Below, in pieces: positions 7,735 to 47,732 of a DNA stretch of 64,000 nucleotides. The notes under the pieces are model-generated. The model ran no database searches. It had not been told where the DNA came from and worked only from the letters and a program-made list of their open reading frames with translations. Made by a program: the position numbers and the translations under genes. Every line of letters begins with the position of its first letter. The first letter of the stretch is position 1. Origin of the DNA: an uncultured Gammaproteobacteria bacterium (GTDB lineage Bacteria; Patescibacteriota; Microgenomatia; Daviesbacterales; UBA10151); assembly GCA_964524895.1 (NCBI GenBank), contig CAZGFG010000001.1:54936-118935 (forward strand), given 5' to 3'.

Positions 7735-8055
7735 TCAACTCGATAAATTTCTTTTAACTTGCTTGTATTCTATTAATACTTGCGCGTATCCAATGATTAA
7801 AAATAAAATTCCTACTCTCATGATAATTTCTGCAATAATATCAAAACTAAATACGGTCATAAAATATGCCAAAATAAAAGAGATAAAGGTTAAGAAAAAG
7901 GATGCTTTGCTTTGTAACTTAAGTTTCCAAACATAGAAACCCCAGCCTAATAAAATCCAACTGTATATGTATATATTGAGCATAGGAAGAAGAAAAAGCA
8001 GGGTGAGTATCAAAAGCCAAATAATGAGGGGTACAAATCTAGTTATCCTTAACAT
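7735..8055 (-). CDS. Small integral membrane protein (106 aa, 3–4 TM), immediately downstream of and overlapping the 1165 aa GT-C gene. A possible GtrA-like accessory.
   Basis: Hydrophobic ORF overlapping the stop of 8039..11536 by 17 nt, which suggests translational coupling. There is no motif-level identification. Confidence 0.4.
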   Translation of the reverse strand: MLRITRFVPLIIWLLILTLLFLLPMLNIYIYSWILLGWGFYVWKLKLQSKASFFLTFISFILAYFMTVFSFDIIAEIIMRVGILFLIIGYAQVLIEYKQVKRNLSS

Positions 8056-11000
8056 ATCTCCTCTTTAATCTCCAAATCACTATTAGTAAACCAGATGAAA
8101 ACGCAACTTGCGATATTATCTCAGTTGAAAATAGTAAATCTTGAGGGGCATATTTAATAATTATTTGATAATCGCCTAATTTATCAATTTTCCAGCCGTT
8201 AGCATATACATTTACTATAAAATGGTCTGCCTGTAGTTCATTCCCAGATGTTGTTAATATTTTCCACCCGGGATCAAAAAGCTCAGATAATACAAGTATA
8301 TAAGGTTCTTTAGCATCAGTTATGTTGATTATATATTGCATGTCGCCTATTTTCTTAAAATCCACTTTAGGGGTACTACTTATTTTTTCTAAATTAGATT
8401 TAACTAAAATGGGCTCATCTATTAGATCCCTAGTAACAGAAAGGTTTCTTATTATTACTTCAGTCGTTCTATCATAGGGCTCCCTAAAACTTTTATCTTT
8501 GCATCGATTTTTGTTCCTAGTATAAAATATTGTCTCACAATCATTCCAAGGATTGACTTTTAATATCAATCTTGCTGTATCCGCCGTATTATTTAACTTG
8601 AAAGAACTGATAAAGTGTTTCTCTCCATAATAGTAATTGTCCGATCCTAAATTAGCAGCAAATCCGTATTCTATTTTACCTAACTTTATTTTAGCGTTAT
8701 TCTCCTCCGCAAGTACTTCAACCCCCAACCCTTTTTTTATCCAGTAATCAAATGCAACCGTATATTCTGCATAAGGATCGTAATTATTTATCGGAAAAGC
8801 CCTACTCGCTTCCCCGTGTTGCACCGTAAGAGTAAACTCATCTTCTGCATTTACTAAATTTACTTCATCAGGCGTATTGAGGGAAATCTCGTGCATCCCA
8901 GAGTCAAAATACATTTTTCCTAATGTCTGACGGCCTAACCGCCCCGGCATCCTTTTAGCAGGAACAATCTTGCTGTCTACCTGTAAAATAATCCTGCCAT
9001 CATTATTCTTTTTATAGTATTTATCTAGATACTCATCACCCCAAAAAAGTTCATATTCTCCGGGGGTGATTATCTTAAACCTATAAGCTATCCTTTTTCT
9101 TACAGTAAATCCATCTTCTTCCCTAAATCCAAAGATAGGTTGAATATTCTCGGTACTTAGCTTAGAATCGAGTAATCGCTGTATATCTTTTAACTGTTCG
9201 ACAATAATCTCATTTTCCGGGAAATGGTTTATCAATTCACTCAATACAACTTCATGTTTTGCAAAGATACCATATAGTTTCTCCTGCTTTATTACTTGCT
9301 TATTATAGATCGTGTGCGAAAGCCTATATCCAGCAAAGATTGGAGTAATTCCATCTAACAAGCTTTTGTATCCTTGAATGGCTATCAGGACGCCTGACGC
9401 ATTATTCTGTCCAGACTCTAATTTTGCCTCAACTAACCTTTTACCTAACAACATGATGATAAAATCCAGTTTTTTTGATATATTAGTATTAGATTCCAAA
9501 TCCATCTTTTCTTTCAGGAGTATCAATCTGTAAAAGCTGCTTGATGGAGGAAATTTAACATGAGGGAAAATATCTTGCCCTCCCTCCGTACTCTGTGTCA
9601 GACTTTCTCCTAGAGAAAGCCTAGCTATAGGATGAATTACTTCTTGATTCACCTTTATATCATTTAGGGAAAGGTCTCCCCCAATCAACACGTCATTACC
9701 ACTTAGAAAAAACTGCGTGTCCGATATTTTAGGCTGAGGAGATACTGCAATGACATGATCGGACAAAGATATTCTCCTATCAACCCACTTTGTATTCTCC
9801 CAAAAAGCAAGTTCTCCAAATACTTCAATCATCTTAAATTGCCCACCTTTGTCTTTTAATCTGTTAAATATACTTTGCGGGTCACGTATCTCCCTGATAC
9901 GCCAATTAATATCATTCCTAAGCATTATATATTTAGCATTTAATATGTTCATTACTTCTGAAAAACTTTCCTTTTTTAAAAAATGTTCCTCTAAACCTCC
10001 TGAAATATCTTTATAAAAAGGGATGTTGGTCTGAAAAGAGACTGAGGTGATTGGGAGTAATTGATTCGAAAGCTCCACACCGGCATAACCTTTTTCCCAA
10101 TTATAAGTAACCCCTTCATCTCCTAAGGGAAATGCTAAAAGACGGAAATTACCTGTTTCGGAATTAAGCCACCTAGAAGCTTGTTGATAATCATTAGGCA
10201 CTTTGACTTGGTAACCTATACTGGGAATATTTGCAGGGTATTCCTCGGCCGTAAAGACTAAACCGGTCCAATAAGGTAACCCGAGTATGCCCAACCAAGC
10301 TATGATTACAAAATAAGCATACTTCCGCCATTTCTCAAAAATTTTCCCGTTTAAGATATACACCCCGTACGCAAACAACGGTGCCGCGGCGAGGGGAAGC
10401 AAAAAACCAAATTTCTCAAATGAATTTCGAAAAACCTGCAAAAATCCGAATTTTTCAAATGCCAAGTTGAATAGTTGTCCAAATGGGGGGTTATTCCCCA
10501 TTGAAAGCAAAGTTCCAAGGATAAACAAACCACTTAATAGCAAAACCGAGTTTTTCTTATTTCTAAAAAATAAAGGGATAAAAATTATTAGTGAAAACGC
10601 AAAAGATAAAAAAGCAACCGGCGGAAAAGTATACAACTTTACCCACTGCATACTATCAGGGCCAAAGAAAGAAGCATGCTGCAACTTCACAATATTTATC
10701 AAACTACCTAGTTTCTGACTAAGAATAGAAAATATTAGTTGGTTATTTTCAGGCGAAAAAGACGTTTGCCTCACCGTGGAAAAACTACTTGAATAAATAT
10801 AACTAAAGGTTTGACTAATCCACCAAAGATTTGTTAAAAACCAGAAAAATAACGACAACAATAGAAATTTAATAACAAACAGTCTAGACTTGAAGTCATT
10901 ATAAGCAAATATATAAAATACTGCCGTGTAAACTAAGACTAACCAAAGTAAAATAATAAAAGCTGCAGAAGAAAGTGCATAAGCAAAAACGGTTGACGAT

Positions 11001-11536
11001 AGGCCAATCATTAAAGCGTATAATAAACGTCTCGTTTGTAACCCTTTGATAAAAAACAGTAGGGAAAGCGGTAACAGCAGATAGAAAACAAAAAAATTAT
11101 TTAAAAACCTGTTCCAAACATTTACCATACTAAATGGGTTAAACCAGTAAAATAAAACTGCTAGGAAGATAAATTTATTACTTAATGAGGGAAAAAGATT
11201 TTTAGTTAAATAATAGATACTTAACCCAGAAACAACTAAAACAACCCAAAAAAAAGACGCCTGGAGAAGGAAACCAGGTATACCAAGGTTTTGTAACTGT
11301 GCCAAAAGCCAATACATAGGTTTAGCGGAAACACTTATGTTGGTGGGATACCCTAGAGCATAATGAGCCCATGCATTTTTATTAGATTCATAGGCAATTT
11401 GGAAATTATAAAAAGGGATTCCGGATTCTCCTATGGCAAGAATATTCCCATCTTTAAACCATACCAAGACCAAAAGTAGCGGAATTAGTAATATAAGTAC
11501 TAAAGGAATGTTGACCCTTTTCAAGAATGAATTCAT
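8039..11536 (-). CDS. 1165 aa polytopic membrane protein, YfhO/AftD-like GT-C putative glycosyltransferase with a large extracytoplasmic domain and C-terminal TM.
   Basis: N-terminal ~650 aa is multi-TM. It carries the conserved internal block PSIGYQVKVPNDYQQASRWL...GVTYNWEKGYAGVEL shared with 45281..47503 and 1..3146, then a long hydrophilic domain and a terminal TM (VAFSSGLLIVIW). Confidence 0.6.
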   Translation of the reverse strand: MNSFLKRVNIPLVLILLIPLLLVLVWFKDGNILAIGESGIPFYNFQIAYESNKNAWAHYALGYPTNISVSAKPMYWLLAQLQNLGIPGFLLQASFFWVVLVVSGLSIYYLTKNLFPSLSNKFIFLAVLFYWFNPFSMVNVWNRFLNNFFVFYLLLPLSLLFFIKGLQTRRLLYALMIGLSSTVFAYALSSAAFIILLWLVLVYTAVFYIFAYNDFKSRLFVIKFLLLSLFFWFLTNLWWISQTFSYIYSSSFSTVRQTSFSPENNQLIFSILSQKLGSLINIVKLQHASFFGPDSMQWVKLYTFPPVAFLSFAFSLIIFIPLFFRNKKNSVLLLSGLFILGTLLSMGNNPPFGQLFNLAFEKFGFLQVFRNSFEKFGFLLPLAAAPLFAYGVYILNGKIFEKWRKYAYFVIIAWLGILGLPYWTGLVFTAEEYPANIPSIGYQVKVPNDYQQASRWLNSETGNFRLLAFPLGDEGVTYNWEKGYAGVELSNQLLPITSVSFQTNIPFYKDISGGLEEHFLKKESFSEVMNILNAKYIMLRNDINWRIREIRDPQSIFNRLKDKGGQFKMIEVFGELAFWENTKWVDRRISLSDHVIAVSPQPKISDTQFFLSGNDVLIGGDLSLNDIKVNQEVIHPIARLSLGESLTQSTEGGQDIFPHVKFPPSSSFYRLILLKEKMDLESNTNISKKLDFIIMLLGKRLVEAKLESGQNNASGVLIAIQGYKSLLDGITPIFAGYRLSHTIYNKQVIKQEKLYGIFAKHEVVLSELINHFPENEIIVEQLKDIQRLLDSKLSTENIQPIFGFREEDGFTVRKRIAYRFKIITPGEYELFWGDEYLDKYYKKNNDGRIILQVDSKIVPAKRMPGRLGRQTLGKMYFDSGMHEISLNTPDEVNLVNAEDEFTLTVQHGEASRAFPINNYDPYAEYTVAFDYWIKKGLGVEVLAEENNAKIKLGKIEYGFAANLGSDNYYYGEKHFISSFKLNNTADTARLILKVNPWNDCETIFYTRNKNRCKDKSFREPYDRTTEVIIRNLSVTRDLIDEPILVKSNLEKISSTPKVDFKKIGDMQYIINITDAKEPYILVLSELFDPGWKILTTSGNELQADHFIVNVYANGWKIDKLGDYQIIIKYAPQDLLFSTEIISQVAFSSGLLIVIWRLKRRYVKDN

Positions 11537-11543
11537 ATATAAA

Positions 11544-12176
11544 TTAAATCTTTTTTACAGCAACTAGACAGGAACTCATGTTTGGTAAAAAATAAGTAAT
11601 AGGAGACATTAAATATGAAATAACTACAAAAAAATATTTTAAATTCCTGAACCTATATAATAATCCTCCGCTCCGATAGATGTACTTGCTACCCTGACCG
11701 TAAACCTCATAGCCTAACTCCTTCATTTCATTTATTTCCCACCCTGACTGATGTCTCTGAAGTTTATTGTCATCTCTTATCTCGAAAGGGTCATATTTTA
11801 CATAACCATTTGGAGTAGTGATAATTACTCTGGATCTTGCAATATTTTCCAGTTTCTTAATTAGTTTCAGAGCGTCTCTTTTACTTAAATGCTCGACCAC
11901 CTGCGAAGCTAAAACTACATCGAATGACTTATTATTGACCTTAAGATTCCTGAGATCAGAACCTAGCAACTTCTTATAAACACCTCTTTTAGCAGCTTTC
12001 TTTAGATAGGGCTGATATAAATCAATCCCTGTAACATTATATTTTTTATCTAAATTCATTTTTGCCATTAATGCCCCGTCACCACATCCAACATCTAGAA
12101 CAGTTTTTGCATTATGGAAATGCTGGCGAATAATCCAGGGTGATGTATATGGAATAAAGGCCAGGATATTTTTCAT
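11544..12176 (-). CDS. Class I SAM-dependent methyltransferase (210 aa, type 11/12-like).
   Basis: Motif I VLDVGCGDGALMA and motif post-II VVLASQVVEHL. It is a paralogue of 41845..42474 and 44652..45275, and its stop is 8 nt upstream of the giant GT-C gene. Confidence 0.8.
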   Translation of the reverse strand: MKNILAFIPYTSPWIIRQHFHNAKTVLDVGCGDGALMAKMNLDKKYNVTGIDLYQPYLKKAAKRGVYKKLLGSDLRNLKVNNKSFDVVLASQVVEHLSKRDALKLIKKLENIARSRVIITTPNGYVKYDPFEIRDDNKLQRHQSGWEINEMKELGYEVYGQGSKYIYRSGGLLYRFRNLKYFFVVISYLMSPITYFLPNMSSCLVAVKKI

Positions 12177-12186
12177 AAGATTAATT

Positions 12187-13890
12187 TTATCTACAGACTA
12201 CGACAAAATCACTTGACTCTTCTTCTTTATTTTTGAGTACCTGAAAATCTTCCGTGCTAAATAATAGCTTAGATTCTCCAGTAATTATTCTTTTTGGATA
12301 TTCCGGTAAGAAGTTCATTATTTTCCTGATAAATCTCTTTTTTGTAAGGAAGTTTGCCGTTTTCCATCTTAAACTTTTATGCACCAAAATTTCTTTTTGA
12401 GCTTTTTGCTTGTTCTTTAAAACTACACCATATAAATTTACCGTTTCGAAATATTTATCAAGTAGTTGCTCCAGTTCGTTCGGATAATACTCATACACAT
12501 GGTATGGATTAGATGGTCTACTCCCGTCAAAAGAACTATATGTCTTATTAGGAGTAGACAAAATCAGGAAGCCGCCTTTTTTAAGACTCTTTTTTGCAAT
12601 CGTAATTAGCTTTTCCGGTTGTTGCAAGTGCTCGATAACTTCAAAAGCCACAACAACATCATACTTTTCAGCCAACTCTAATTTTTCTACATCCGCTTCA
12701 AGAAAGTTGATATTACTGTGTGGATTATGTCTTCTCGCAAAGCTTATCGCAGAAGGATCAACATCACAGGCAGTAATAATTTTGACACCATTTTCCGCTA
12801 AGTAATTACTGCCATATCCAGTCCCACACCCGATCTCCAGTAATTTTTTCCCTCTACAAAAATCAAGGGCGAATTTATACTTTACCAAGTGTAAACCATC
12901 AATATCACTTAAGGATGGACGCTCTCCAGAAAAAATGGTCTTTTTTGAGAATAGGCATATTACTATTCCTGCAAAAACTCCTTGAACGAGCTTTAACCAA
13001 TCAGATAACCTACCATACCTTAAAGCGAGTCTTAGGTAATAGATAATAAATATCGGTAAGAACAAAAGAAAAATAAAAAAGTTTTTACTAAAATCTTTCA
13101 TAAACAGGATCCTATTTCTCCCTATCCAATAACCTCTTGATAAAAGTCTTAATGATTCTTTTTTTGGCTCATGTGGTATCTTATGGTAGGCAAAAGCTGT
13201 GGGAGTATAAAAAACCTTAAAACCCTCTGCCCTTGCACGAAAACAAAAATCAGTATCTTCATATGTTGCAAAGTATCTATCGTCAAACGCTTTAAGTCTA
13301 TTAATAACTGACCTTTTTACCAAGAGAACAGCGGGTGCTACCTGCACTTCTTCCGGAGTTTCATATTGTCCTACATCAGTACCCCCCCTAAATAAAACTT
13401 GCCCACTCCATAGGTTAATACCTGTACCAGCTGACCAAATTCTTCTCTTATCGCCAAAATAAAGAATCTTTGGAGTGATAATTCCTATCGATGGGTCTAT
13501 TTTTATCAATCTCACTAATTCTTTGAGCATATTTTTATCCGCAATCATATCATGATCAAAAAAAAGTAAACAGTCTGAGGTAGCTTTTGCTTGCCTTATT
13601 CCTTCATTCCTGCCGCCGGTTACACCAGTATTTGTTTCCATAGTAATCACTTTAGCTCGGGGGAAGAACTTTTTAACCCTATCTGTAGTTCCATCTGTTG
13701 AATGATTATCTATAATAATAATTTCACGAGGCTTTAAGGTCTGTTTCTGAATAGAATTAATGCAAATTCTTAAGGTCTGCCAACTATTATACGTCGGTAT
13801 GATTACTGAAACAGCTGTTGTATTAAATTTTTCCATTAGAGATTCTAAAACAATAAAAAGTATATTACTATCCAACTTCTTTATCTTCAA
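12187..13890 (-). CDS. Bifunctional GT2 glycosyltransferase (N-terminal) fused to a class I SAM methyltransferase (C-terminal), with a central TM segment.
   Basis: N-terminus has VSVIIPTYNSWQTL...IIIIDNHSTDGT and a DxD-like DHDM motif (GT-A fold). The middle has hydrophobic helices (FFIFLLFLPIFIIYYL). The C-terminus has LLEIGCGTGYGS and VVVAFEVIEHL. Confidence 0.8.
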   Translation of the reverse strand: MKIKKLDSNILFIVLESLMEKFNTTAVSVIIPTYNSWQTLRICINSIQKQTLKPREIIIIDNHSTDGTTDRVKKFFPRAKVITMETNTGVTGGRNEGIRQAKATSDCLLFFDHDMIADKNMLKELVRLIKIDPSIGIITPKILYFGDKRRIWSAGTGINLWSGQVLFRGGTDVGQYETPEEVQVAPAVLLVKRSVINRLKAFDDRYFATYEDTDFCFRARAEGFKVFYTPTAFAYHKIPHEPKKESLRLLSRGYWIGRNRILFMKDFSKNFFIFLLFLPIFIIYYLRLALRYGRLSDWLKLVQGVFAGIVICLFSKKTIFSGERPSLSDIDGLHLVKYKFALDFCRGKKLLEIGCGTGYGSNYLAENGVKIITACDVDPSAISFARRHNPHSNINFLEADVEKLELAEKYDVVVAFEVIEHLQQPEKLITIAKKSLKKGGFLILSTPNKTYSSFDGSRPSNPYHVYEYYPNELEQLLDKYFETVNLYGVVLKNKQKAQKEILVHKSLRWKTANFLTKKRFIRKIMNFLPEYPKRIITGESKLLFSTEDFQVLKNKEEESSDFVVVCR

Positions 13891-14834
13891 GAGCCAGGAG
13901 GTGAAAGTTTCTTAATCTTAATATTACTTTCATAGGAGTTTACTACTTCCTGCCAAGTTGCAAAAGAAATGCCCAACCTTTTTTGAGTAATATCTGTTCT
14001 AAGACCCCCAAATTGGGGATACCGTCTGGGATATTTATTAAGATAGGATTTAATACTTGTTGATGGAATGGCATGATGCACTCCGGAAAACCGTTCAATA
14101 AGATGTTCTGCCATCTTGTGAGGTGTGCAAATATCTGTTGTAGAGACATGATAAATACCGGGTAATTTGATTGTTAATAACTTAATTATAATCTTTACCA
14201 AAGTTGGTATATAACTTAATGTTAAATATTGATCATTAAACAAAGGATAGATTTTTTTGTCTAAATATAGTTGTAATATTTTTCCAATATAATCCAGTTT
14301 AGGTTCATTTCCTGGTCGGGTAATATTACAAATTCTTATTATGGATGTTTGTTTTATATTCTCTAAAACCGCTCTTTCAGCTTCTCTTTTAGTGAGACCA
14401 TACCAAGATAATAATCTATCACTATCCTTAAATTTAGCATTTTCCCCGTATGGACCTGGATTTTTTTTATGCCCGGAAAAAATGTAATCTGTAGAGATAT
14501 GAATTAAAAAGGATTTGTATTGCTTGCAGATTTTAGCCATATATTTTGTACCTTCAACATTAACCTTCCATACATTTCCGTTTTTGTTACATCTTTCTTT
14601 CTCCGCCAAAGATGCATCTCTAAAAGCTGCAAAGTGCACAACAACTTCCGGTCTATACTTCTCAAAACATCTTTTAATAGTGTCTACTCTAATGATATCC
14701 ATCTCACTTCGACAAGGATAAATAATGTCCTTATCTTTAAATCTTTCAGAATAGCACTTGAGAAAATAAGAGCCTATTAATCCGCTACCCCCGGTTATTA
14801 GAACCTTTTTTCTTGCTGTTGTCTTAAAGCTCAT
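13887..14834 (-). CDS. NAD(P)-dependent sugar epimerase/reductase, extended SDR, RmlD-like.
   Basis: N-terminal VLITGGSGLIGSYF Rossmann motif and a YGLTK (YxxxK) catalytic motif. 315 aa. ATGA overlap with the upstream gene. Confidence 0.7.
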   Translation of the reverse strand: MSFKTTARKKVLITGGSGLIGSYFLKCYSERFKDKDIIYPCRSEMDIIRVDTIKRCFEKYRPEVVVHFAAFRDASLAEKERCNKNGNVWKVNVEGTKYMAKICKQYKSFLIHISTDYIFSGHKKNPGPYGENAKFKDSDRLLSWYGLTKREAERAVLENIKQTSIIRICNITRPGNEPKLDYIGKILQLYLDKKIYPLFNDQYLTLSYIPTLVKIIIKLLTIKLPGIYHVSTTDICTPHKMAEHLIERFSGVHHAIPSTSIKSYLNKYPRRYPQFGGLRTDITQKRLGISFATWQEVVNSYESNIKIKKLSPPGS

Positions 14835-15574
14835 TATTTTTTAGGGGCGAATAACTCGCTTTTTATAAAACTTAGTTGATGTAGTTCATAAATCAAAAGC
14901 ATCTTAACAGTTTCCAATACAAATTTAATCCCTTTTTGTAAACTCATCGAGGAAGATTTTTCATTATATCTTGTAGAAATTGGTATCTCCCCTACCCTAA
15001 ATTTAAAGCTGACTGCTGATAAGGTCATTTGCTCATCAAATAAGAAATCATTGGAAAATTTTTCAAATGGTACTGTTTTCAACAATCTAGCCGAATATGC
15101 TCTAAATCCCGAGAAATGCTCCGTAAAGTTTACACCTAAGAGAATATTTTGTAGTAAACAAAAGAAGCGGTTAGTATAATATTTTAATTTAGGCATCCCC
15201 CCTTTCAAAGCCTCCTCTCTGGTCGAAATTCTGCTGCCAAACATAAAATCATACCTTTTTTCGATGATTGGCTTGATTAAATTTCCTAAATAATAAGCGC
15301 TGTACTGATAGTCAGGATGTAGCATAGCCACAACGTCCGGCTTTAACTTTAAAGCCTCTCTGTAACATGTTTTCTGGTTACCCCCATAACCTATATTTCT
15401 ACTATGCTTAACTACCTTAATATCCAGCTTAGAGGCGATTGCTAATGTTTTGTCAATACTCTTATCATCAACTAAGATAATATACTTCCTAAATCTTTTT
15501 GGAATGTCAGTATAAGTCTCCAACAATGTTTTCTCAGCGTTATATGCTGGCATTACAATAACAACTTTACTCAT
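14834..15574 (-). CDS. GT2 glycosyltransferase, DPM1/Ppm1-like polyprenol-phosphate sugar synthase (soluble, 246 aa).
   Basis: VVIVMPAYNAEKTL...ILVDDKSIDKT. Small GT-A protein without C-terminal TMs. It overlaps the downstream GT-C gene by 8 nt, the classic Ppm1–Pmt arrangement. Confidence 0.7.
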   Translation of the reverse strand: MSKVVIVMPAYNAEKTLLETYTDIPKRFRKYIILVDDKSIDKTLAIASKLDIKVVKHSRNIGYGGNQKTCYREALKLKPDVVAMLHPDYQYSAYYLGNLIKPIIEKRYDFMFGSRISTREEALKGGMPKLKYYTNRFFCLLQNILLGVNFTEHFSGFRAYSARLLKTVPFEKFSNDFLFDEQMTLSAVSFKFRVGEIPISTRYNEKSSSMSLQKGIKFVLETVKMLLIYELHQLSFIKSELFAPKK

Positions 15575-22819: not shown

Positions 22820-22893
22820 ACTCCTAGAAATAAATCTTACATAATTCTAATCCCTACTCCTTAGCCTGTCAATATTATATACTATCGCAGCTT

Positions 22894-23979: not shown

Positions 23980-23988
23980 GCAAAATAA

Positions 23989-25419: not shown

Positions 25420-26075
25420 ACCGAAGAAAAAACCTAAACAATATTAATACTGTACTTTTTGATGTCGATGGAACCCTCTTAAATACAACTGAATTTATCT
25501 TTCAGTCATATGAAAATACCTTCAGGAAGTTCAATCTGCCTCGCATAAGCAGAGGAGAAATAGCCAATCTGATGGGGAAACCCCTTGAAGAGTGCTACAA
25601 ATACCTGGCACCATCTTTCCCGCTAAAGATCCTTTGCAAAACACACCTGACTTTTCAACTGGAAAATCTACAGTTAATAGCACCTTATGTGAATACTAAA
25701 TCTACTCTGCAAAATCTCAAAAAAAACCATATTAGAATCGGAGCTGTTACTACAAGATCAAACCTAACTTCAATAAAATCATTACAAATTACTGGAATTC
25801 ATAGTTTTTTTGATGTTGTAATCTCCGGAGATGATGTTAAGTACCATAAACCTCATTCTGAACCACTTCTCAAGGCTTTAGGAATCCTCAAGGCGGAAAA
25901 GGGAAAAGCTGTAATGGTAGGAGATACGGAGAGTGATATTTTGGCAGGGAAAAACGCAGGAGTACTCACAATAGGGGTAACATATGGCTTCCATAAAGAG
26001 AAAATAGTTGACGCAAATCCAGATTTTACCCTAAATGATGTTTCAGAGATTTTACAGTTGCTTAGCAGAACCTAG
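25416..26075 (+). CDS. HAD-superfamily phosphatase.
   Basis: Motif I LFDVDGTLL, motif III K..., motif IV MVGDTESD. 219 aa. ATGA overlap with the kinase. Confidence 0.8.
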   Translation: MNRRKNLNNINTVLFDVDGTLLNTTEFIFQSYENTFRKFNLPRISRGEIANLMGKPLEECYKYLAPSFPLKILCKTHLTFQLENLQLIAPYVNTKSTLQNLKKNHIRIGAVTTRSNLTSIKSLQITGIHSFFDVVISGDDVKYHKPHSEPLLKALGILKAEKGKAVMVGDTESDILAGKNAGVLTIGVTYGFHKEKIVDANPDFTLNDVSEILQLLSRT

Positions 26076-26130
26076 GGATCTAAACAATTAGTTGACATCG
26101 TAATAAACTTGTCTATTATATGCTGGTAGT

Positions 26131-38839: not shown

Positions 38840-40249
38840 TTAGAAACGGAAATAGATGAATGATTGATATGTTTCTGCTGATATAAAGATAAGCGAAAGC
38901 AGAAATAAGAAAGTAAAGGCCAACAAGCGAAATACTTCACTTGGTATCACTGATATTTTTGTTCTCTTGATATATGTTAAAAACATGGAGAAAATTGGAG
39001 TTGCAAAGAAGAGTCCTAAAATTAGAGCTAAAATTATATCATTTCTGACAAAATAATCGGTCGAATAGTAAATCAAATCTTGGTTAAGATTATTAAACAT
39101 CAATTTAATAAAACCCGCTGACTCTGTTAGACTCTCACTTCTAAAAAATACCCAGCTTATTAATAACACCAAAAGGGTATAAACATGCTTGACTAATTTA
39201 GGCATCCAGTTAATGAAAAATCCTCCTTTTAGTCTTTCTAAAACAAGAAATATTCCATGGAATAAACCCCAAGCTATAAAGGTCCAGTTTGCACCATGCC
39301 ATAGTCCTGTTAAAGCAAATACTAAGATAATATTTCTAAAGGTTACAATCTCGCCTTTTCTATTACCCCCCAATGGTATATAGACATAATCTTTAAACCA
39401 ATTATACAATGTCATATGCCATCTTCTCCAAAAGTCTATAATACTTGTTGCTGTATATGGATAGTTGAAGTTTTCCGGGAACTTAAAGCCGAAGATCATC
39501 CCTAGGCCAATTGCCATGTCAGTATAACCCGAGAAGTCATAATATATTTGTAGTGCAAAACAAATTACTGCAATCCAAATTTGCTCTATGGATACATGTG
39601 CAGGACCGATACTGAAAACTTCATCTGCTACCGGGGCTAGAGTGTTTGCAATAATTACCTTTTTAGATAATCCGATCATAAATCTATATAATCCTTGTGA
39701 GACCATCTGCCAGTCAATTGCTCTTTTTATAAGCTTTTTTGCCACTTGGTGGTATCTGATAATAGGACCAGCAATTAGATGTGGAAAGAGAGTAAAATAA
39801 AGGACCAATCTTGCCAAATTTTTTTCCGGCTTATTAACCCCTTTAAATACGTCTATATTGTATGAAATTGCATGGAAAGTAAAAAAAGATATTGCTAAAG
39901 GTAAATAGATATTAAAAGTTTTGTTATCTATCCCTACAATATTTAAATTGCCAAATATAAAATTGGTATATTTAAAGTAAGCTAAAACTCCTAAATTTAA
40001 GATTATTGCTAAGATCAAAGATGCCCGTTTCGAATCTTTCTTCTCCTGCATCGAAATTGCAAGAGAAGTAAAAAAATTTAGTATAATCCAAAGATATATT
40101 AACAGAACATATAACCCCTCGCCCCAAAAATAAAACAAACCACTAGCTATAATTAATAAAATATTCCTCTTATCTTCCCGTAGAAAAAAATACAGAACAA
40201 GTACCAGTGGGAAAAAGTATAACAAAAAAACCGGACTAGTAAAATTCAT
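38840..40249 (-). CDS. MBOAT-family membrane-bound O-acyltransferase (AlgI/DltB-like).
   Basis: Polytopic protein with IDFWRRWHMTLYNWFKDYVYIPLGGNRKG (the MBOAT WRRWH / catalytic His region) and a downstream conserved H (GLWHGANW). Confidence 0.85.
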   Translation of the reverse strand: MNFTSPVFLLYFFPLVLVLYFFLREDKRNILLIIASGLFYFWGEGLYVLLIYLWIILNFFTSLAISMQEKKDSKRASLILAIILNLGVLAYFKYTNFIFGNLNIVGIDNKTFNIYLPLAISFFTFHAISYNIDVFKGVNKPEKNLARLVLYFTLFPHLIAGPIIRYHQVAKKLIKRAIDWQMVSQGLYRFMIGLSKKVIIANTLAPVADEVFSIGPAHVSIEQIWIAVICFALQIYYDFSGYTDMAIGLGMIFGFKFPENFNYPYTATSIIDFWRRWHMTLYNWFKDYVYIPLGGNRKGEIVTFRNIILVFALTGLWHGANWTFIAWGLFHGIFLVLERLKGGFFINWMPKLVKHVYTLLVLLISWVFFRSESLTESAGFIKLMFNNLNQDLIYYSTDYFVRNDIILALILGLFFATPIFSMFLTYIKRTKISVIPSEVFRLLAFTFLFLLSLIFISAETYQSFIYFRF

Positions 40250-41876
40250 TTTTAACTCTATTTATCTTAATCTTGGCCAGCTCCTCTCGTACCATCTCTG
40301 TTATTTCAACCAGCCGATTTTTTCCTTCTAGCTTGAAGGCATACACATTTTCAATTGGAATTGGTGCTTGAGGGAAATCAAATGGCGCCAATGAACTGCC
40401 ATCTGTTACGGCCGATACGACTTGTTCCCAACCATCCAGAGGAACTGGCATCTTAGAAAAATCATCTAAATTATAAGCTAACGCCATATGTACAGGAAAA
40501 CCGAATGTCAGTGCTCCATAAAGAATTTGTCTATTCTCCCCTGTGAAATAAAAGACCTGCGCTTCTCCACTCTTCCCAATTTCCGAGATTAAAGGAAGTT
40601 GTTCCCAAACTTTTTCTGTAATTTCAACACCATGCAAATTGTCTACTTGATACTGTAAGTAGTTTCTTGAAGAATAAATGTTTAATATAAGAAACAGCGA
40701 AACGAAAAGAACACCTAATATCGTAAATTTTCTTTTTATTCTACTTATAAGAATCGCTATAAAAATGGTTAGTCCGGATGCTGAGACTATTAGATAACGA
40801 TGAAAAAAGGGTAGTAAAGTTAATGGATCTTTAAGCCAAGCGAAAATAAATGCACATATTAACCAGCAAAAAGCTAAAAAGAATCCAGTCGAAATTAGAT
40901 AGTTGCTACGATTTTTATAGATCAGCCTTAAGGCAAAAAGGATAAAGAATATCCCTACCCAAAGCATTATTCTTTGATCAACCATCTGATAGTCAAGAGG
41001 TATTAACATATTACCGATAATAATAAGCGGGTACAGAATAAAATCTGTACTTCCTTTATTCAGCAAGGCTCCAGACGAAGCTAATCCCCCTTTCCATACT
41101 CCGGTTAGCTGATCTATCGGACCAAAAAGGGAATATCCCGAACGCCCACCAAATTCGGAGACTATCTGACCAAATATGACTAGAATAATAAATAAACTTA
41201 TAAAACCACTCAACCGGATTATTAACAACTTTAGATTTTTTAACTGAAAAAATCTAAAGAAAAAGAATAATTCCATTAATAGGACAAGGGGTACTGCACC
41301 AGTCATTCTGACTGAGGCAGTAAACATCGCCAGAACCAAAAACAATAGGCTAATCACATAAAAACGCGGGTTGTAGTCTTTTTCATGAGCCTTCACAAAA
41401 TAAAGGAGGAAAAAATTGAATAAAGCTATGGCAATATAAACTGGCATATTAAAAACCCAATTAGTAGCATCAAGACCTACGGCAGTTACAGAAAAAAATA
41501 AAACAGCCAATACAGCAGAAACTTTATTCTTAGTTAAATAATAAACAAGCGGATAAAAAGATAGAGCTGCAATCAACCTTAGAATATAAGCTGTAATATA
41601 GTAGTAAAGAGATTTAAAACCCACTATCTCTGCTATCAAACCCATTATTAACTCAAACGAGCCGTACCTGGTTAAAAAATACGTTAAGTAGTTTAAAGCT
41701 CCATGGGAAACAGGACCAATGGTATAGAAATATCTCCATAACGCTAGCCAATCATCTCCATAAAGTCCTAATTGAAAGCTTGGATAAAGTGCAAATAAAC
41801 TGAAGGGCACCAGAATTAGAAAAATGAAAATTAGATTCTTTCCTTTAGTCATTATTTTTAAAATCTTTAACAGCAA
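40236..41876 (-). CDS. GT-C-like polytopic membrane glycosyltransferase paralogue (546 aa).
   Basis: LYGDDWLALW motif after TM1, the family NIP... region and a C-terminal VYAFKLEGKNRLVEITEMVREEL tail. It overlaps the upstream methyltransferase by 32 nt. Confidence 0.6.
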   Translation of the reverse strand: MLLKILKIMTKGKNLIFIFLILVPFSLFALYPSFQLGLYGDDWLALWRYFYTIGPVSHGALNYLTYFLTRYGSFELIMGLIAEIVGFKSLYYYITAYILRLIAALSFYPLVYYLTKNKVSAVLAVLFFSVTAVGLDATNWVFNMPVYIAIALFNFFLLYFVKAHEKDYNPRFYVISLLFLVLAMFTASVRMTGAVPLVLLMELFFFFRFFQLKNLKLLIIRLSGFISLFIILVIFGQIVSEFGGRSGYSLFGPIDQLTGVWKGGLASSGALLNKGSTDFILYPLIIIGNMLIPLDYQMVDQRIMLWVGIFFILFALRLIYKNRSNYLISTGFFLAFCWLICAFIFAWLKDPLTLLPFFHRYLIVSASGLTIFIAILISRIKRKFTILGVLFVSLFLILNIYSSRNYLQYQVDNLHGVEITEKVWEQLPLISEIGKSGEAQVFYFTGENRQILYGALTFGFPVHMALAYNLDDFSKMPVPLDGWEQVVSAVTDGSSLAPFDFPQAPIPIENVYAFKLEGKNRLVEITEMVREELAKIKINRVKNEFY

Positions 41877-42474
41877 TCAATCCACCGCTTATTTCAGGGA
41901 AAAAATAACTAAAAGGGGTAAAAAGGTAATAAAGCGCCTGTTTTAATTTAATAAAACGGTCCCCCCAAAGCAATGGGATTTTTACTCCGATTCCATAAAC
42001 CCTATACCCACGTGACCTGAAATCTTTAATAGTCCAGAGTGACTTATGTTCATCCTCTTCTTCACCTTCTATGGTTTTGAAAAACATATTCGGGGTGGAG
42101 ATAATAGCCCTTCCGCGGCAAACTCTATCTATCCCTTTTAACAACTTCAATCCATCACTTCTGTTTAGATGTTCAATAACCTCTATACATAAAATAAGAT
42201 CGACGCTTTTATTTTTTAAGGGAATAGTCGGTAATCTGTGTTTAATAATACGGTCATAGGTATTATGCTCCATACAAGATTTTATATATTTTTCGTTTAT
42301 CTCTATTCCTAATAATTTAGTGTCCTTTAAGTCTCTACTTCCATGTAGAAGACAACCGTTTAATCCTCTACCACAACCAACATCTAAAACTGTTTTATTA
42401 GCTATAATAGGGGTAAAATATGATATAAACGGGTGATAAAAAAATGGGTGTGTCCCAGACGGTATGTTATTCAT
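41845..42474 (-). CDS. Class I SAM-dependent methyltransferase (209 aa), paralogue of 11544..12176.
   Basis: VLDVGCGRGLNG, VDLILCIEVIEHLNRSDGLKLL, ISTPN. Confidence 0.8.
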   Translation of the reverse strand: MNNIPSGTHPFFYHPFISYFTPIIANKTVLDVGCGRGLNGCLLHGSRDLKDTKLLGIEINEKYIKSCMEHNTYDRIIKHRLPTIPLKNKSVDLILCIEVIEHLNRSDGLKLLKGIDRVCRGRAIISTPNMFFKTIEGEEEDEHKSLWTIKDFRSRGYRVYGIGVKIPLLWGDRFIKLKQALYYLFTPFSYFFPEISGGLIAVKDFKNND

Positions 42475-42492: not shown

Positions 42493-43500
42493 TTAATTTA
42501 GTTTTTTTCTCCAATTCTCTGGTAAAAGTTGGCTATCAATTTCAATTTCAGTATAAATAGGATTTTGTACCCCTTGTGATTTTACATATTCCCATGTTTT
42601 TTTTAAACCCTCATTAATAGAGGTTCTATCTTTATATCCTAAATATTTTTTTGCTAAACTATGGCTTGAAATAGCAATCTTTACCTCTTGGGGTCTATTT
42701 TTAATGTATTTTGGCTTTATTTTGAGACCAGAAATATTTTGTACTATGTCAGAAAGTTCATTAATAGAATGATCTTTATCTGATCCGATATTAAATATCA
42801 TGCCATTGGCGTTTAAAAATCCACATTTTATAATTGCATCGACTACATCACTAATGTAGGAAAAGCATCTTCGCTGTCTCCCATCCCCATAAATAAAATA
42901 AGGTTCGCCCTTAAGAAGAGCACTCATAAAAATAGTAACTACATTTCGATAGGGGTCTGACATATTTTGACCAGGTCCATACACATTATGAGGTCTAGTA
43001 ATTACATATTCAAAATTATGGACACTGCTTAATATCTTAAGCGATTGCTCTACAGCAAGTTTCCCCACTCCATATATATCTTCTGGTTCAGGTCTATCTG
43101 ACTCTTTAAAAGGTGCCCGAATAGATCCATAAACAGCAATGCTAGATGTAAATACGAATCTCTTCATACCATTATTTAAAGCAGGAACAAGAGTATTTAT
43201 GAAGGTATTATATGTTCTAGTAGAAATATCTATTGGTGAGAATTGGGCCTTATTCTCAGCAGCATTTGCTGCTAAATGGTAAATAATCTCCGGCTTTATA
43301 ACCTTGATTATTTCTTCTGCTTTTTTTCTATCTCTCAAATCACAAAGATAAAATTTAGAGTTAGGGTTTAGATTTTTTTTACTACCACCTGATAAATCGT
43401 CTATATTAAAGACATTATGACCTTCACTTATTAATTTATTTATTAAATGACTTCCAATGAATCCCGCTCCCCCAGTCACTAGAATGTTTCTTTTTTTCAT
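42493..43500 (-). CDS. NAD-dependent epimerase/dehydratase (UDP-sugar 4-epimerase/decarboxylase-like extended SDR).
   Basis: ILVTGGAGFIGSHL and YGVGKLAVE (YxxxK). 335 aa. First gene of the ~12 kb minus operon. Confidence 0.8.
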   Translation of the reverse strand: MKKRNILVTGGAGFIGSHLINKLISEGHNVFNIDDLSGGSKKNLNPNSKFYLCDLRDRKKAEEIIKVIKPEIIYHLAANAAENKAQFSPIDISTRTYNTFINTLVPALNNGMKRFVFTSSIAVYGSIRAPFKESDRPEPEDIYGVGKLAVEQSLKILSSVHNFEYVITRPHNVYGPGQNMSDPYRNVVTIFMSALLKGEPYFIYGDGRQRRCFSYISDVVDAIIKCGFLNANGMIFNIGSDKDHSINELSDIVQNISGLKIKPKYIKNRPQEVKIAISSHSLAKKYLGYKDRTSINEGLKKTWEYVKSQGVQNPIYTEIEIDSQLLPENWRKKLN

Positions 43501-43628: not shown

Positions 43629-44651
43629 ATGAGGTGGCCTTTAGTCTCAGTGGTAATGTCGAATTACAACGGAGTAACGTTGAATCTATTAAATGATTCT
43701 CTCCCTCCAATTCTAAAAAACTCTTATCCAAACTTAGAGGTAATTTTAGTAGATAATGCCTCAACTGACAACAGCGTAGATTATATAAAAAATAAATTTG
43801 GTAAGAATCCCCGTCTAAAGATTATTCAAAATCATATTAATATGTACAGTATAGGACTGAATTTAGGAGTAAAGAACTCCTCCGGCAAATATGTAGCTTT
43901 TTTCAACAATGATGTTGTCGTAGAGGATGATTATTTTCAAAAAATAATTACTTTTTTAGAAAAAAATTCTGATATTGCATTAGCTCAAGGGAAATTAGTG
44001 TCATATTATAATAAAAAAATAATTGATAGCGCAGGGGAAACAATGGATTACTTCGGGAATCCTATAACTATAGGGTCAGGTCAGAATGCAAAGGAGAGTT
44101 ACAACCAAATTATGGAAATATTATCTGTTAGTGGCTCGTGCTCAATTTTACGAAAGTCTGTAATTTCCAAGGTTGGATATTTTGACGATGACTATGGTAT
44201 TGGATATGAAGATATGGATCTGTCCTTAAGAGCATGGCTTAGGGGGTATCGGGTAGTTTATTCCCCTGATGCTATAGCTTTTCATAAAAGGGCTGCTACA
44301 GACCTCTCCCCAATGGTTAGAGCAATCGTTAGGTGGCATTTCAACAAAAATAGGCTAGCTACAATGATTAAAAATTATCCCCTTACCGATCTTATTACCT
44401 GTCTACCTGTTACAATAATTATTTATATTTTTGCAGGATTATGGGAAATATTATTGAAAAAGAATTATCAAGTAGGAATAACTCGATTCTCTGCAATTAT
44501 ATGGGCCATTGATCACCTACCTAATATAATTAGAAAAAGGGGCTTAGCCAGAAACGGAATTAACAATAGCAATTTTGAAATAATTCGTAAACTTTTGTTT
44601 AAAAAGATATTATTCCAAAGCTTTTTGTCTTTTCTTAAAATCAAAAATTAA
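43629..44651 (+). CDS. GT2 glycosyltransferase with a C-terminal membrane segment.
   Basis: VSVVMSNYNG...EVILVDNASTDNS and YEDMDL. Hydrophobic C-terminal region (LPVTIIIYIFAGLW). Confidence 0.75.
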   Translation: MRWPLVSVVMSNYNGVTLNLLNDSLPPILKNSYPNLEVILVDNASTDNSVDYIKNKFGKNPRLKIIQNHINMYSIGLNLGVKNSSGKYVAFFNNDVVVEDDYFQKIITFLEKNSDIALAQGKLVSYYNKKIIDSAGETMDYFGNPITIGSGQNAKESYNQIMEILSVSGSCSILRKSVISKVGYFDDDYGIGYEDMDLSLRAWLRGYRVVYSPDAIAFHKRAATDLSPMVRAIVRWHFNKNRLATMIKNYPLTDLITCLPVTIIIYIFAGLWEILLKKNYQVGITRFSAIIWAIDHLPNIIRKRGLARNGINNSNFEIIRKLLFKKILFQSFLSFLKIKN

Positions 44652-45275
44652 ATGAATTTCCTACCATTTTCCTATAATTGGGTGGTGCAAAGAAACCTTA
44701 ATAAAGCAAACGTTAAAACTGTCTTAGACCTTGGCTGCGGAACAGGCACAACTGGTATTAGATTTAATCAAAATAACCAGTACCTTTTGACGGGTGTAGA
44801 CATATTTGCACCATATCTTGAAGAATGCTTAAGGACTGGAAAATACGCTAAAGTGAAAAGTGGAGATTTTAAAAAAAAATTAAAGTTTAAAAGTAAAGGG
44901 TTTGATGCAGTGGTATGCTTGGAAACGATTGAGCATTTATCTAAAAAAGATGGACTAAAGCTAATCGGAGAGGCTGAAAGGACTGCAAAAAAGGTGGTGA
45001 TCTTTACCTGCCCAATGGGGAAAGCTATCCAAGAAAGTTATGATGAAAACAAGTATCAGAAACACTTATCATCCTGGTTTCCTGGAGAATTTACAAAAAG
45101 AGGATATAAGGTCAATGGGATCGGTTTAAAATCCGTTTACGGAAAACACACCCACGTTAACCATACTATAAAACCTTACACAGCTCCATTATATTTTCTG
45201 TCTTTTTTAGCTAATCCTATAACAAACATTTTCCCAAATATATCTTGTCAGATGGTAGCCATTAAGTTACTCTAA
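44652..45275 (+). CDS. Class I SAM-dependent methyltransferase (207 aa), paralogue of 11544..12176.
   Basis: VLDLGCGTGTTG, FDAVVCLETIEHLSKKDGLKLI. It starts 1 nt after the GT2 stop and ends 5 nt before the giant GT-C gene. Confidence 0.8.
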   Translation: MNFLPFSYNWVVQRNLNKANVKTVLDLGCGTGTTGIRFNQNNQYLLTGVDIFAPYLEECLRTGKYAKVKSGDFKKKLKFKSKGFDAVVCLETIEHLSKKDGLKLIGEAERTAKKVVIFTCPMGKAIQESYDENKYQKHLSSWFPGEFTKRGYKVNGIGLKSVYGKHTHVNHTIKPYTAPLYFLSFLANPITNIFPNISCQMVAIKLL

Positions 45276-47503: not shown

Positions 47504-47732
47504 TTATTGGCTTATTTTTATAATTTGGGTATTATTCTTGATATTCAAAAAAAGAGAGTTTGCCTATTATTTAAATATTTCTTTTTATCTATTTTGTATT
47601 GGCGCCGTTTTAAAAGTGTTAACAATTGACACTCCTTCAGAAATATTCATGAGATTGAGCTTACTCTCGATACTGACAAGTTTAGGATTTATCATTTGGA
47701 AAAATATCAAATTGAGCTTTCTTAGAAACTAA
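47496..47732 (+). CDS. Small integral membrane protein (78 aa, 2 TM); uncertain.
   Basis: Hydrophobic ORF overlapping the upstream giant GT-C stop by 8 nt, in the same relative position as 7735..8055. However, its 3' end overlaps the convergent carbamoyltransferase gene by 51 nt. Confidence 0.3.
   Translation: MINYWLIFIIWVLFLIFKKREFAYYLNISFYLFCIGAVLKVLTIDTPSEIFMRLSLLSILTSLGFIIWKNIKLSFLRN

Follow-up and report, generated by a model that had tools for sequence, protein, structure and literature searches.

A methyltransferase family linked to GT2 and GT-C glycosyltransferase genes in a patescibacterial glycan-biosynthesis island

Methyltransferase modules and their GT-C partners

We analysed a 64,000-nucleotide (nt) stretch of the Patescibacteriota contig CAZGFG010000001.1 (hereafter, the window), in which small genes for S-adenosylmethionine (SAM)-dependent methyltransferases adjoin genes for polytopic membrane proteins with a glycosyltransferase C (GT-C) fold. 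Open reading frames (ORFs) of at least 100 amino acids (aa; n = 48) were scanned, with ORF maps based on longest-ORF starts and simple hydropathy for transmembrane (TM) helices. Pfam scans of these ORFs revealed that the entire window, with a G+C content of approximately 33%, is a single glycan-biosynthesis island. All ORFs named in a preliminary description of this DNA were found again at the same positions. Three of them, MT1, MT2 and MT3 (Table 1), match Pfam Methyltransf_25/11 at E values of 1e-10 to 1e-14 (53, 44.6 and 50.4 bits, respectively, against cut-offs of 21–27) and are thus class I SAM methyltransferases. Pairwise alignment gave 36% identity for MT1 and MT3 (E = 2e-39), 36% for MT1 and MT2 (E = 3e-36) and 30% for MT2 and MT3 (E = 1e-21), identifying the three proteins by sequence as mutual paralogues, as the preliminary description had proposed.

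Each methyltransferase gene lies directly upstream of, or overlaps, a gene for a polytopic membrane protein, also as first described. The MT1 stop codon precedes the BIG1 ATG by 7 nt and the MT3 stop codon precedes the BIG3 ATG by 5 nt, while the overlap of MT2 and BIG2 is 8 nt from the ATG at 41852, the BIG2 start chosen by a public gene caller, or 32 nt from the TTG at 41876. On the upstream side, the stop codon of a family 2 glycosyltransferase (GT2) gene, which we termed GT2*, abuts the MT3 start codon. Translational coupling at these junctions is an inference from spacing alone. Two of the modules end in a small TM ORF that overlaps the 3′ end of the GT-C gene (S1 after BIG1 and S3 after BIG3), again in line with the earlier account. 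The repeated unit of the window is therefore GT2*, methyltransferase, AftD-like GT-C and small membrane ORF, present in two paralogous copies; in the MT1 copy the GT2 is part of a fusion protein, and its GT2 domain is paralogous to the stand-alone GT2* (27% identity, E = 2e-26). The third module is heterologous and consists of an epimerase gene, MT2 and BIG2.

Table 1. Genes of the three modules, with positions in the window.
Feature	Position	Strand	Description
S1	7735..8055	-	106 aa, 3 TM helices; 17-nt overlap with the 3′ end of BIG1; Shine-Dalgarno GAGGAG; long form
BIG1	8039..11536	-	1165 aa, AftD-like (DUF3367/PF11847-type) GT-C; 972 bits on the AftD-like hidden Markov model (HMM); orthologue in locus L001
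MT1	11544..12176	-	210 aa, member of the MT* family, Hen1-like class I SAM methyltransferase; predicted metal ligands Q92, E95, H96, H142; 303 bits on the family HMM
GT2*-methyltransferase fusion	12187..13890	-	567 aa: GT2 domain, two hydrophobic helices (272-313), generic class I methyltransferase outside MT*
RmlD-like NAD(P)-dependent sugar reductase	13887..14834	-	Pfam RmlD_sub_bind, E = 6e-43; same operon as MT1; syntenic in L001
Short GT2	14834..15574	-	246 aa; NCBIfam AglJ (E = 2e-16) and PpgS (E = 2e-13), both below curated cut-offs; syntenic in L001
BIG2	40236..41876	-	GT-C of an unannotated family; 538 aa from the ATG at 41852 (538-546 aa); G-D33-D34-W motif in first outer loop
MT2	41845..42474	-	209 aa, member of MT*, separate sub-branch; predicted metal ligands E98, E101, H102, H143
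NAD-dependent sugar epimerase/dehydratase	42493..43500	-	Pfam Epimerase, E = 1e-47; directly upstream of MT2
GT2*	43629..44651	+	340 aa GT2, C-terminal hydrophobic helix 258-276; NCBIfam MftF, rhamnosyltransferase, AglG and PgaC types, all below cut-off
MT3	44652..45275	+	207 aa, member of MT*; predicted metal ligands E91, E94, H95, H138
BIG3	45281..47503	+	740 aa, AftD-like GT-C; segment W18-F19-K20-D21-G22...E29 in first outer loop
S3	47496..47732	+	78 aa membrane protein; 8-nt overlap with the 3′ end of BIG3; short form of the S1 family

BIG1 and BIG3 are paralogous (40% identity over 580 aa, E = 4e-138, plus a common C-terminal segment), and BIG1 is predicted to have approximately 11 TM helices at its N terminus and one at its C terminus, along with a large extracytoplasmic domain. 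Searches of the PDB by sequence with BIG3, BIG2 and the BIG3 family profile gave no meaningful match, so we turned to fold comparison. The AlphaFold2 model of BIG3, built with 25 homologues (pLDDT 86.5, pTM 0.88), retrieved AftD first in Foldseek (6w98, the best match at E = 4e-11, with 6wby and 6wbx; E up to 2e-9, TMq 0.49–0.56), followed by STT3 and AftA. BIG3 scored 17 bits on the Pfam GT-C_AftD model, below its cut-off of 26, and BIG1 did not match it. Many BIG3 homologues (37–50% identity) carry a precomputed PF11847 match, and NCBI names them 'alpha-(1->3)-arabinofuranosyltransferase family protein' or 'DUF3367'. Of 24 aligned homologues, 23 keep [KR]20, 22 keep [DE]21 and all keep E29 of the first outer loop of BIG3, and by sequence these positions appear comparable with K39 and D41 of AftD, which are essential in that enzyme (bioRxiv 10.1101/2019.12.22.885152).

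BIG2 had no Pfam or NCBIfam match and its relatives are all named 'hypothetical'. By the organism names of BIG3 and BIG2 homologues, the DNA belongs to Candidatus Daviesbacteria or Microgenomates within Patescibacteria. Its AlphaFold2 model (pLDDT 91.3) retrieved GT-C enzymes for all of the top 21 Foldseek matches (STT3, AglB, PglB, ArnT, DPY19, Pmt4, AftA and AftB; E = 1.6e-4 to 6e-2, TMq 0.30–0.48), and the motif in its first outer loop is conserved across the family (of 32 sequences, 30 keep D33, 31 keep D34 and 31 keep W35). Judged by these models, and for BIG1 by its paralogy with BIG3, the three partners are all GT-C glycosyltransferases belonging to two families, the AftD-like BIG1 and BIG3 and the separate BIG2 family. 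The 'giant GT-C' partners of the preliminary description thus hold up as to fold, for which the BIG3 and BIG2 models speak, and as to the kinship of BIG1 and BIG3, but not as a single family, and BIG2, at 538–546 aa, is not giant.

Further membrane proteins of this kind surround the modules. Four BIG2 paralogues of approximately 630 aa each lie at 15567–17498, 31671–33590, 33617–35494 and 35561–37438, another AftD-like gene is cut by the window start (3–3146, minus strand; 243 bits on the AftD-like HMM), and a 927-aa protein with 13 TM helices (3157–5940, minus strand) shows a weak match to the MmpA family, beyond which Pfam and NCBIfam searches with BIG1, BIG2 and four other membrane proteins returned nothing. 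A 501-aa protein at 6151–7656 (plus strand) carries a 'QDDF' motif in its first loop. The total of approximately 11 GT-C-type membrane proteins in 64 kb is unusually high.

To place the small ORFs, we used 53 non-redundant AftD-like loci from a GT-C-anchored metagenome scan, together with the window, L001 and L147. An S-type ORF overlaps (by 4–28 nt) or abuts the 3′ end of nearly every complete AftD-like gene of both relevant size classes, with a homologue directly downstream of 24 of the 26 long genes (1100–1250 aa) and 9 of the 12 BIG3-like genes (720–760 aa). Homology between the long form (93–123 aa) and the short form (66–79 aa) is seen both with hmmsearch (E = 1e-14 to 1e-20) and with hhalign (probability 97.8%), and the two forms have the segment '[AS]E..[MF]R.SF...G' in common. 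The AftD-like gene with its overlapping small membrane ORF is the most conserved two-gene unit of the system. The public gene caller omits S3 and calls a 36-aa ORF on the opposite strand; however, the retention of a homologous ORF after 9 of the 12 BIG3-like genes argues that S3 is a real gene, and annotation probably misses this conserved small membrane protein systematically. S1, S3 and eight homologues gave no GtrA (PF04138), SMR or DUF2304 match and no consistent Pfam match up to E = 5, and we discarded these three identities because the matches obtained were inconsistent chance ones. The small protein may be a subunit, a donor-delivery factor or a flippase; for mycobacterial GT-Cs, too, a recent proposal invokes small partners (bioRxiv 10.64898/2026.07.15.738315).

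The MT* family and its putative metal site

Scores on an HMM of the MT1–MT3 family were bimodal, with members at 130 bits or more and generic methyltransferases below 90 bits, and an exhaustive profile search of 1.84 billion clusters retrieved 1,020 representatives at E<=1e-30, so that the family has approximately 1,000 clusters at 50% identity. Source annotations read at most 'SAM-dependent methyltransferase'. By these sequence criteria the proteins form a distinct and sizeable family without a name, which we termed MT*, and its genomic context is glycan biosynthesis throughout the loci viewed. The preliminary description had raised the prospect of a housekeeping UbiE-type enzyme, which does not apply: MT1 scores 28.7 bits on the UbiE/MenG model TIGR01934, below the cut-off of 158.35. 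The fourth copy of the domain that it had placed in the GT2*-methyltransferase fusion turned out to belong to a different methyltransferase family, scoring 44.6 bits on the MT* HMM, and its best PDB matches are PEAMT and UbiG. A genome-contig scan with the generic SAM motif [VI]LD[VL]GCG[DN]G returned 80 unrelated class I methyltransferases that aligned over residues 14–126 only, and these loci (L007–L086) were left out.

In profile searches against the PDB, the nearest solved structures were those of bacterial Hen1 (3jwg and 3jwi, E = 7e-16), in an alignment that covers the EVIEH and HxxxW (HRFEW) segments. In HEN1, residues E796, E799, H800 and H860 bind a metal ion jointly with the ribose 2′ and 3′ hydroxyls (PMC10781085), and these ligands align to MT* positions Q/E92, E95, H96 and H142. 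E95 is conserved in 231 of 233 non-identical family members, and H96 and H142 in 229 each; 219 members have Q, D, E or H at position 92, and at least 218 carry SAM motif I (D28-x-G-C-G); the putative Hen1-type metal site, (Q/D/E)xxEH...H, is kept in approximately 229. From this conservation we infer metal-assisted O-methylation of a sugar hydroxyl, so that MT* is probably an uncharacterised family of metal-dependent sugar O-methyltransferases. The likeness to Hen1 extends to the aromatic residue that follows the ExxEH...H pattern, and both enzymes would methylate a sugar hydroxyl beside a second hydroxyl; the differences are that MT* stands in a glycan context throughout and that its first ligand position is often Q or D.

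We considered and rejected MT* as an orthologue of Hen1. On TIGR04074, the Hen1 model, MT1 scores 36.5 bits, far short of the cut-off of 340, the Hen1 N-terminal domain is absent from MT1–MT3, which are single-domain proteins of 207–210 aa by Pfam, and no Pnkp repair partner, whether kinase, phosphatase or ligase, was found among the 48 window ORFs scanned. A possible C-terminal TM anchor in MT* was not adopted: hydropathy of the tail is sub-threshold in MT1–MT3 (maximum 1.04–1.44) and higher in some fusions.

The closest match to MT1 in a collection of 15 billion proteins is 91% identical. The exact sequences of MT1, MT2, BIG1, S1 and the GT2*-methyltransferase fusion do not occur in that collection, and those of MT3, GT2*, BIG3 and BIG2 from the ATG at 41852 do; different start-codon calls may account for part of the missing exact matches, or the window may stem from another assembly that is closely related.

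Gene neighbourhoods and domain fusions

The preliminary description suggested that methyltransferase and GT-C form a functional unit. We therefore compared gene neighbourhoods in the 53 AftD-anchored loci and in methyltransferase-anchored look-ups (L001, L002, L004–L006 and L145–L148 among the loci viewed). The adjacency does recur. L001, whose methyltransferase is 66% identical to MT1, is fully syntenic, with a PpgS-like GT2, RmlD, a GT2-methyltransferase fusion, MT*, an AftD-like gene of 1171 aa and a small ORF, followed by a second AftD-like gene with its small ORF and no methyltransferase; L147 shows the order MT*, AftD-like gene, small ORF. Counting the window, L001 and L147, MT* lies directly upstream of 10 of the 26 AftD-like genes of 1100–1250 aa and within 5 kb of 14, and the order of an MT2-type gene followed by a BIG2-family gene is found again in L116. 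Altogether 20 of the 53 AftD-anchored loci contain MT*, and because the family is rare this co-occurrence is far from chance, yet it is facultative.

These observations, with the tight junctions of all three modules, would suit a dedicated two-protein unit: the AglJ/PpgS-like GT2 would make a polyprenyl-phosphate monosaccharide, which MT* would methylate for specific use by the adjacent GT-C. Such a GT2 gene does lie within the MT1 operon, and AftD-family enzymes take polyprenyl-phosphate monosaccharide donors (bioRxiv 10.1101/2019.12.22.885152). Against it, MT* is missing beside 16 of the 26 BIG1-like genes and beside 11 of the 12 BIG3-like genes (the single case being that of the window itself), it is never directly upstream of AftD-like genes of the 640–710 and 900–1000 aa classes, and four of the five BIG2-family genes of the window stand without it. 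In a neighbour-joining tree the MT* proteins whose genes precede AftD-like genes are scattered (polyphyletic), and MT2 clusters with the methyltransferase of L116, whose gene likewise stands ahead of a BIG2-family gene. Moreover, MT* occurs apart from GT-C genes in distant loci, and the fusion surveys described below yielded no MT*-GT-C fusion. We regard a dedicated pair as unlikely, and the proposal that methyltransferase and GT-C form a conserved unit does not stand: the adjacency recurs in other genomes, but most AftD-like genes and the other BIG2-family genes of the window do without it.

The link to GT2 is stronger. Neighbour statistics were compiled for 42 MT* domains in 33 non-redundant loci, with the upstream side visible in 37 cases. 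A GT2 gene lies directly upstream in 18 of these 37 and is fused to MT* in 7–8, approximately 25 together. Directly downstream of the 42 domains we found another GT2* in 14 cases and a GT-C gene in 15, of which 2 belong to the BIG2 family and 13 are AftD-like, the last frequency being inflated since most comparison loci were fetched via their AftD-like gene. In L002, L006, L145, L146 and L148 the methyltransferase follows a GT2, and GT-C-like genes are merely nearby. Natural GT2*-MT* fusion proteins of 512–550 aa occur in L110, L114, L120, L122, L126, L127 and L144, and L118 encodes a triple fusion of GT2*, MT* and a second methyltransferase (795 aa). A survey of the top 150 MT* representatives, retrieved without reference to their neighbours, contained 10 GT2-MT* fusions. 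MT* is thus tied more tightly and more generally to GT2 than to GT-C. In profile searches against the PDB, GT2* matched elongating GT2s at E = 1e-39 to 1e-24, with chondroitin synthase, GalT1, TarS and PglI nearest, rather than DPMS (5mlz, 7e-16) or GtrB (5ekp, 4e-11), and one or two hydrophobic helices usually follow its catalytic domain.

Many loci contain an alternating GT2*-MT*-GT2*-MT* series that ends at an AftD-like gene, with up to three rounds in L116, L128, L111 and L126. This arrangement bears on the possibility that MT* caps the chain, methylating the non-reducing end of a lipid-linked polymer so that elongation stops and export is licensed. The methyltransferase domain of WbdD in Escherichia coli O8 provides such a chain-terminating methyl cap, and the pairing of MT* with elongating-type GT2s would fit it. 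So would the position of MT* at the C-terminus of a Wzx/MOP-type lipid-linked-oligosaccharide flippase in three proteins (P0346, P0362 and P0419), as a 'finish, then export' checkpoint. Internal stepwise methylation is nonetheless better suited to an alternating series, we found no WbdD-like kinase or coiled-coil ruler domain, and no ABC transporter was seen among the window ORFs scanned, which leaves a terminal cap improbable in our estimate.

MT* could also act earlier, on a nucleotide-activated sugar such as a dTDP-6-deoxyhexose before glycosyl transfer. The RmlD-like gene adjoins the GT2*-methyltransferase fusion, one protein (P0403) is an RmlD-MT* fusion, and the island holds many sugar-nucleotide enzymes. 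However, sugar O-methylation in characterised pathways usually follows glycosyl transfer, and at least 18 independent GT2 fusions, together with the flippase fusions, point to action at the membrane after transfer. MftM, for example, acts on the glucan made by MftF (PMC9679996). We see only a slim chance for methylation at the nucleotide-sugar stage. Other MT* fusions are to a Glyco_tranf_2_5 domain, an FkbM methyltransferase and a second methyltransferase.

Finally, the adjacency might follow simply from how densely operons are packed in a small genome, without any specific relation between the methyltransferases and their neighbours, or MT* might comprise RNA-directed Hen1-like enzymes. CPR (Patescibacteria) genomes are gene-dense, the window is tightly packed throughout and the nearest solved structure is that of an RNA methyltransferase. 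Yet MT* appears in 20 of 53 AftD-anchored loci although it accounts for only approximately 1,000 of 1.84 billion clusters, GT2 and Wzx domain fusions occur repeatedly, and the Hen1 domain structure, Pnkp partner and score level are missing, as set out above. The fusions and the AftD-locus co-occurrence largely refute this explanation, which we hold to be extremely improbable.

Several loci carry variations on these arrangements. Tandem MT*-MT* and MT*-generic-methyltransferase fusions of 404–440 aa (P0289, P0294, P0298 and P0307) mirror the adjacent MT*-MT* genes of L145. A 904-aa protein (L144:6499-9213) joins GT2* to a polytopic domain that scores as BIG2 family, which would make it a GT2-GT-C fusion, and an 888-aa protein (L129:874-3540) has GT2* followed by approximately 8 TM helices. 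A second, generic class I methyltransferase (250–315 aa, or fused) recurs in L108, L111, L126, L145, L146 and L148, sometimes directly upstream of the AftD-like gene, and in the window as the C-terminal domain of the GT2*-methyltransferase fusion. Two more methyltransferases stand alone in the window, at 59132–59938 (minus strand) and 49590–50216 (plus strand). Methyl groups of more than one kind may therefore be added by these cassettes.

Proposed pathway and related systems

Because MT* is fused both to a sugar-adding GT2 and to a lipid-linked-glycan flippase, and because the operons end in outward-facing GT-Cs, we propose that it acts near the membrane on a lipid-linked glycan. A membrane-associated GT2* would add a sugar to a polyprenyl-phosphate-linked intermediate at the cytoplasmic face, which the AglJ/PpgS-like GT2 may have primed. 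The adjacent or fused MT* would then methylate a sugar hydroxyl with SAM, using a Hen1-type Mg/Mn site that binds the sugar hydroxyl(s); SAM is cytoplasmic, so methylation would precede export. After one to three GT2*/MT* rounds, as the related loci suggest, the methylated intermediate would be flipped across the membrane, where outer-face GT-Cs (AftD-like BIG1 and BIG3 with the small membrane partner, or the BIG2 family) would transfer or extend the methylated glycan onto a cell-envelope acceptor. We put the probability of this mechanism as a whole at roughly 0.55. It builds on observed paralogy, GT-C folds, family membership, conserved residues, gene-order statistics and domain fusions, and proposes from them a sugar substrate, metal dependence, a lipid carrier, an order of steps, a role for the small protein and an acceptor. 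The methylated lipid-linked donors for GT-C that the preliminary description envisaged survive here only in the broader form of methylated lipid-linked glycan intermediates.

Several observations weigh against this mechanism. The MT2 module has an epimerase in place of GT2*, and in L004 and L005 the gene upstream of MT* is not a GT2* either; on the downstream side, the inflated count of AftD-like neighbours has to be borne in mind. With respect to the metal site, the first ligand position is Q in MT1, the Hen1 similarity is limited to the methyltransferase core (only MT1 residues 21–126 match TIGR04074, at model positions 281–398 of 462), the Hen1 model score of MT1 is low, and in a single-sequence search MetW-type models rank slightly above Hen1. 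Membrane association of MT* and GT2* is suggested by hydropathy only. No Wzx-type flippase was found among the 48 window ORFs, which leaves the flipping step without an assigned gene.

The closest logic that we found is that of the archaeal Agl pathway, as an analogy of logic only. There, GT2s build a glycan stepwise on dolichyl monophosphate at the cytoplasmic face, the SAM methyltransferase AglP takes part and one sugar carries a methyl group, and after flipping of the product AglB and AglS, both GT-Cs, act outside (PMC3871713). The short GT2 of the MT1 operon has AglJ as its best or near-best NCBIfam match and the GT2* proteins match AglG more weakly, but these scores lie far below equivalog level (60.2 bits against a cut-off of 325 for AglJ, TIGR04182; 49.2 and 48.4 against 440 for AglG, NF041394). 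The window host, moreover, is a CPR bacterium, its GT-Cs are AftD-like or of the BIG2 family and not STT3/AglB oligosaccharyltransferases, nothing points to a protein acceptor, and AglP, compared with MT* by description only, makes a methyl ester of a hexuronic acid.

AftD of Mycobacteriales is the nearest structural relative of BIG1 and BIG3, at a sequence identity of approximately 12%. The tmaT locus, conserved in Mycobacteriales, encodes MtrP (a cytoplasmic putative SAM methyltransferase whose substrate is unknown), an Rv0225-type glycosyltransferase, MmpA (a membrane protein resembling the AftD N terminus), TmaT and AftD (PMC8698533; bioRxiv 10.64898/2026.07.31.741767), and a TmaT-AftD complex has been reported (bioRxiv 10.64898/2026.07.31.741936). 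It thus resembles the window in combining methyltransferase, glycosyltransferase and AftD-type protein, with the MmpA-like 3157–5940 protein as a further weak correspondence. AftD carries three carbohydrate-binding modules and an acyl-carrier-protein-binding C-terminal bundle, and MtrP, which is set beside MT* by locus context only, is proposed to need a Trm112-like activator. No Pfam match to DPA-pathway genes (UbiA-type, DprE1/E2) was noted in the window ORF scans, no dedicated search having been made. Patescibacteria are not known to make arabinogalactan or mycolates. Given MtrP in the AftD/MmpA/TmaT locus (PMC8698533) and the Agl combination of GT2s, AglP and GT-C (PMC3871713), the earlier remark that the pairing is not recognised from characterised systems was too strong.

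The operon logic also matches that of three-component systems. GtrA/GtrB/GtrC, ArnC/ArnEF/ArnT, GacI/J/K/L and CsbB/GtcA/YfhO each combine a GT2, a small membrane protein and an outer-face GT-C, and we know of none among them that includes a methyltransferase. The window has a GtrB/ArnC/PgfS-like GT2 with two C-terminal TM helices at 29463–30452 (plus strand) and the PpgS/AglJ-like one, whose sequence resembles polyprenyl/dolichyl-phosphate sugar synthases and which is a likely maker of lipid-phosphate-sugar for GT-C enzymes; the two are likely donor sources for many of the GT-Cs in the window. Short AglJ/PpgS-like GT2s recur in related cassettes. By contrast with the three-component systems, the GT2* beside MT* resembles elongating GT2s more than GtrB by profile, and S1 and S3 match no GtrA, SMR or DUF2304 model.

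In mycofactocin biosynthesis, a GT2 (MftF) adds sugars and a SAM methyltransferase (MftM) 2-O-methylates glucose in the resulting glucan (PMC9679996), and GT2* and MT1 show weak NCBIfam matches to MftF and MftM, respectively. Neither score comes near its cut-off, mycofactocin sugars are attached to a soluble cofactor and not to a lipid-linked envelope glycan, mftM lies apart from mftF, and there is no GT-C. No equivalog-level membership was obtained for the Agl, tmaT/AftD, three-component or MftF/MftM systems; the comparisons are analogies, not assignments.

The window and approximately 30 related loci define a recurrent, testable cassette of GT2 and methyltransferase (often fused), AftD-like GT-C and conserved small membrane protein, which predicts O-methylated surface glycans. 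Known logic (lipid-linked glycan assembly, O-methylation, GT-C use) is here carried out by a methyltransferase family that is uncharacterised, together with a GT-C family and a small partner that both lack annotation. As far as we are aware, there is hardly any experimental work on patescibacterial cell envelopes; full-text literature searches for Patescibacteria with GT-C glycosyltransferases found no paper, and those for DUF3367 found nothing related. The cassette offers a compact natural GT2-methyltransferase fusion for biochemistry and identifies a near-universal small partner of AftD-like enzymes. A Hen1-like metal site, if true, would extend the mechanism of RNA ribose methylation to glycan methylation, and the cassette, by its parallel, could serve as a simpler model system for the AftD/MmpA/MtrP locus of mycobacteria, which lies in a neighbourhood of drug targets. 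More tentatively, MT* might be a widespread and hitherto unrecognised Hen1-type, metal-dependent family acting on polyprenyl-phosphate sugars that, with GT2*, an AftD-like GT-C and an obligate small subunit, forms a pathway to methylated envelope glycans, encountered in this analysis in Patescibacteria-type sequences only, and the same combination of methyltransferase and AftD-family enzyme may explain why the AftD/MmpA/TmaT locus of mycobacteria requires MtrP. Should all of this prove wrong, MT* would be an ordinary sugar methyltransferase in a glycan operon.

Other genes of the island concern further glycan modifications. An MBOAT gene (38840–40249, minus strand) and a gene for an AlgX-like SGNH protein (37445–38836, minus strand) directly follow BIG2 in the same operon, with a 14-nt overlap, and MBOAT with SGNH is the classic two-component layout for O-acylating an extracytoplasmic glycan. 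Two paralogous NodU/CmcH-type carbamoyltransferases (34% identity; 47682–49487 and 53312–55051, both on the minus strand) suggest O-carbamoylated sugars, and carbamoyltransferase genes also adjoin AftD-like genes in L145 and L146. The block at 21590–31656 encodes a NeuB-like synthase, a dehydroquinate-synthase-like enzyme, an FGGY kinase, a HAD phosphatase, an acetolactate-synthase-like thiamine pyrophosphate (TPP) enzyme, reductases and a DegT aminotransferase; together with a split transketolase at 57410–59130, it points to synthesis of an unusual sugar, which may be branched or of the higher-carbon type. L004 likewise encodes a TPP enzyme near MT*.

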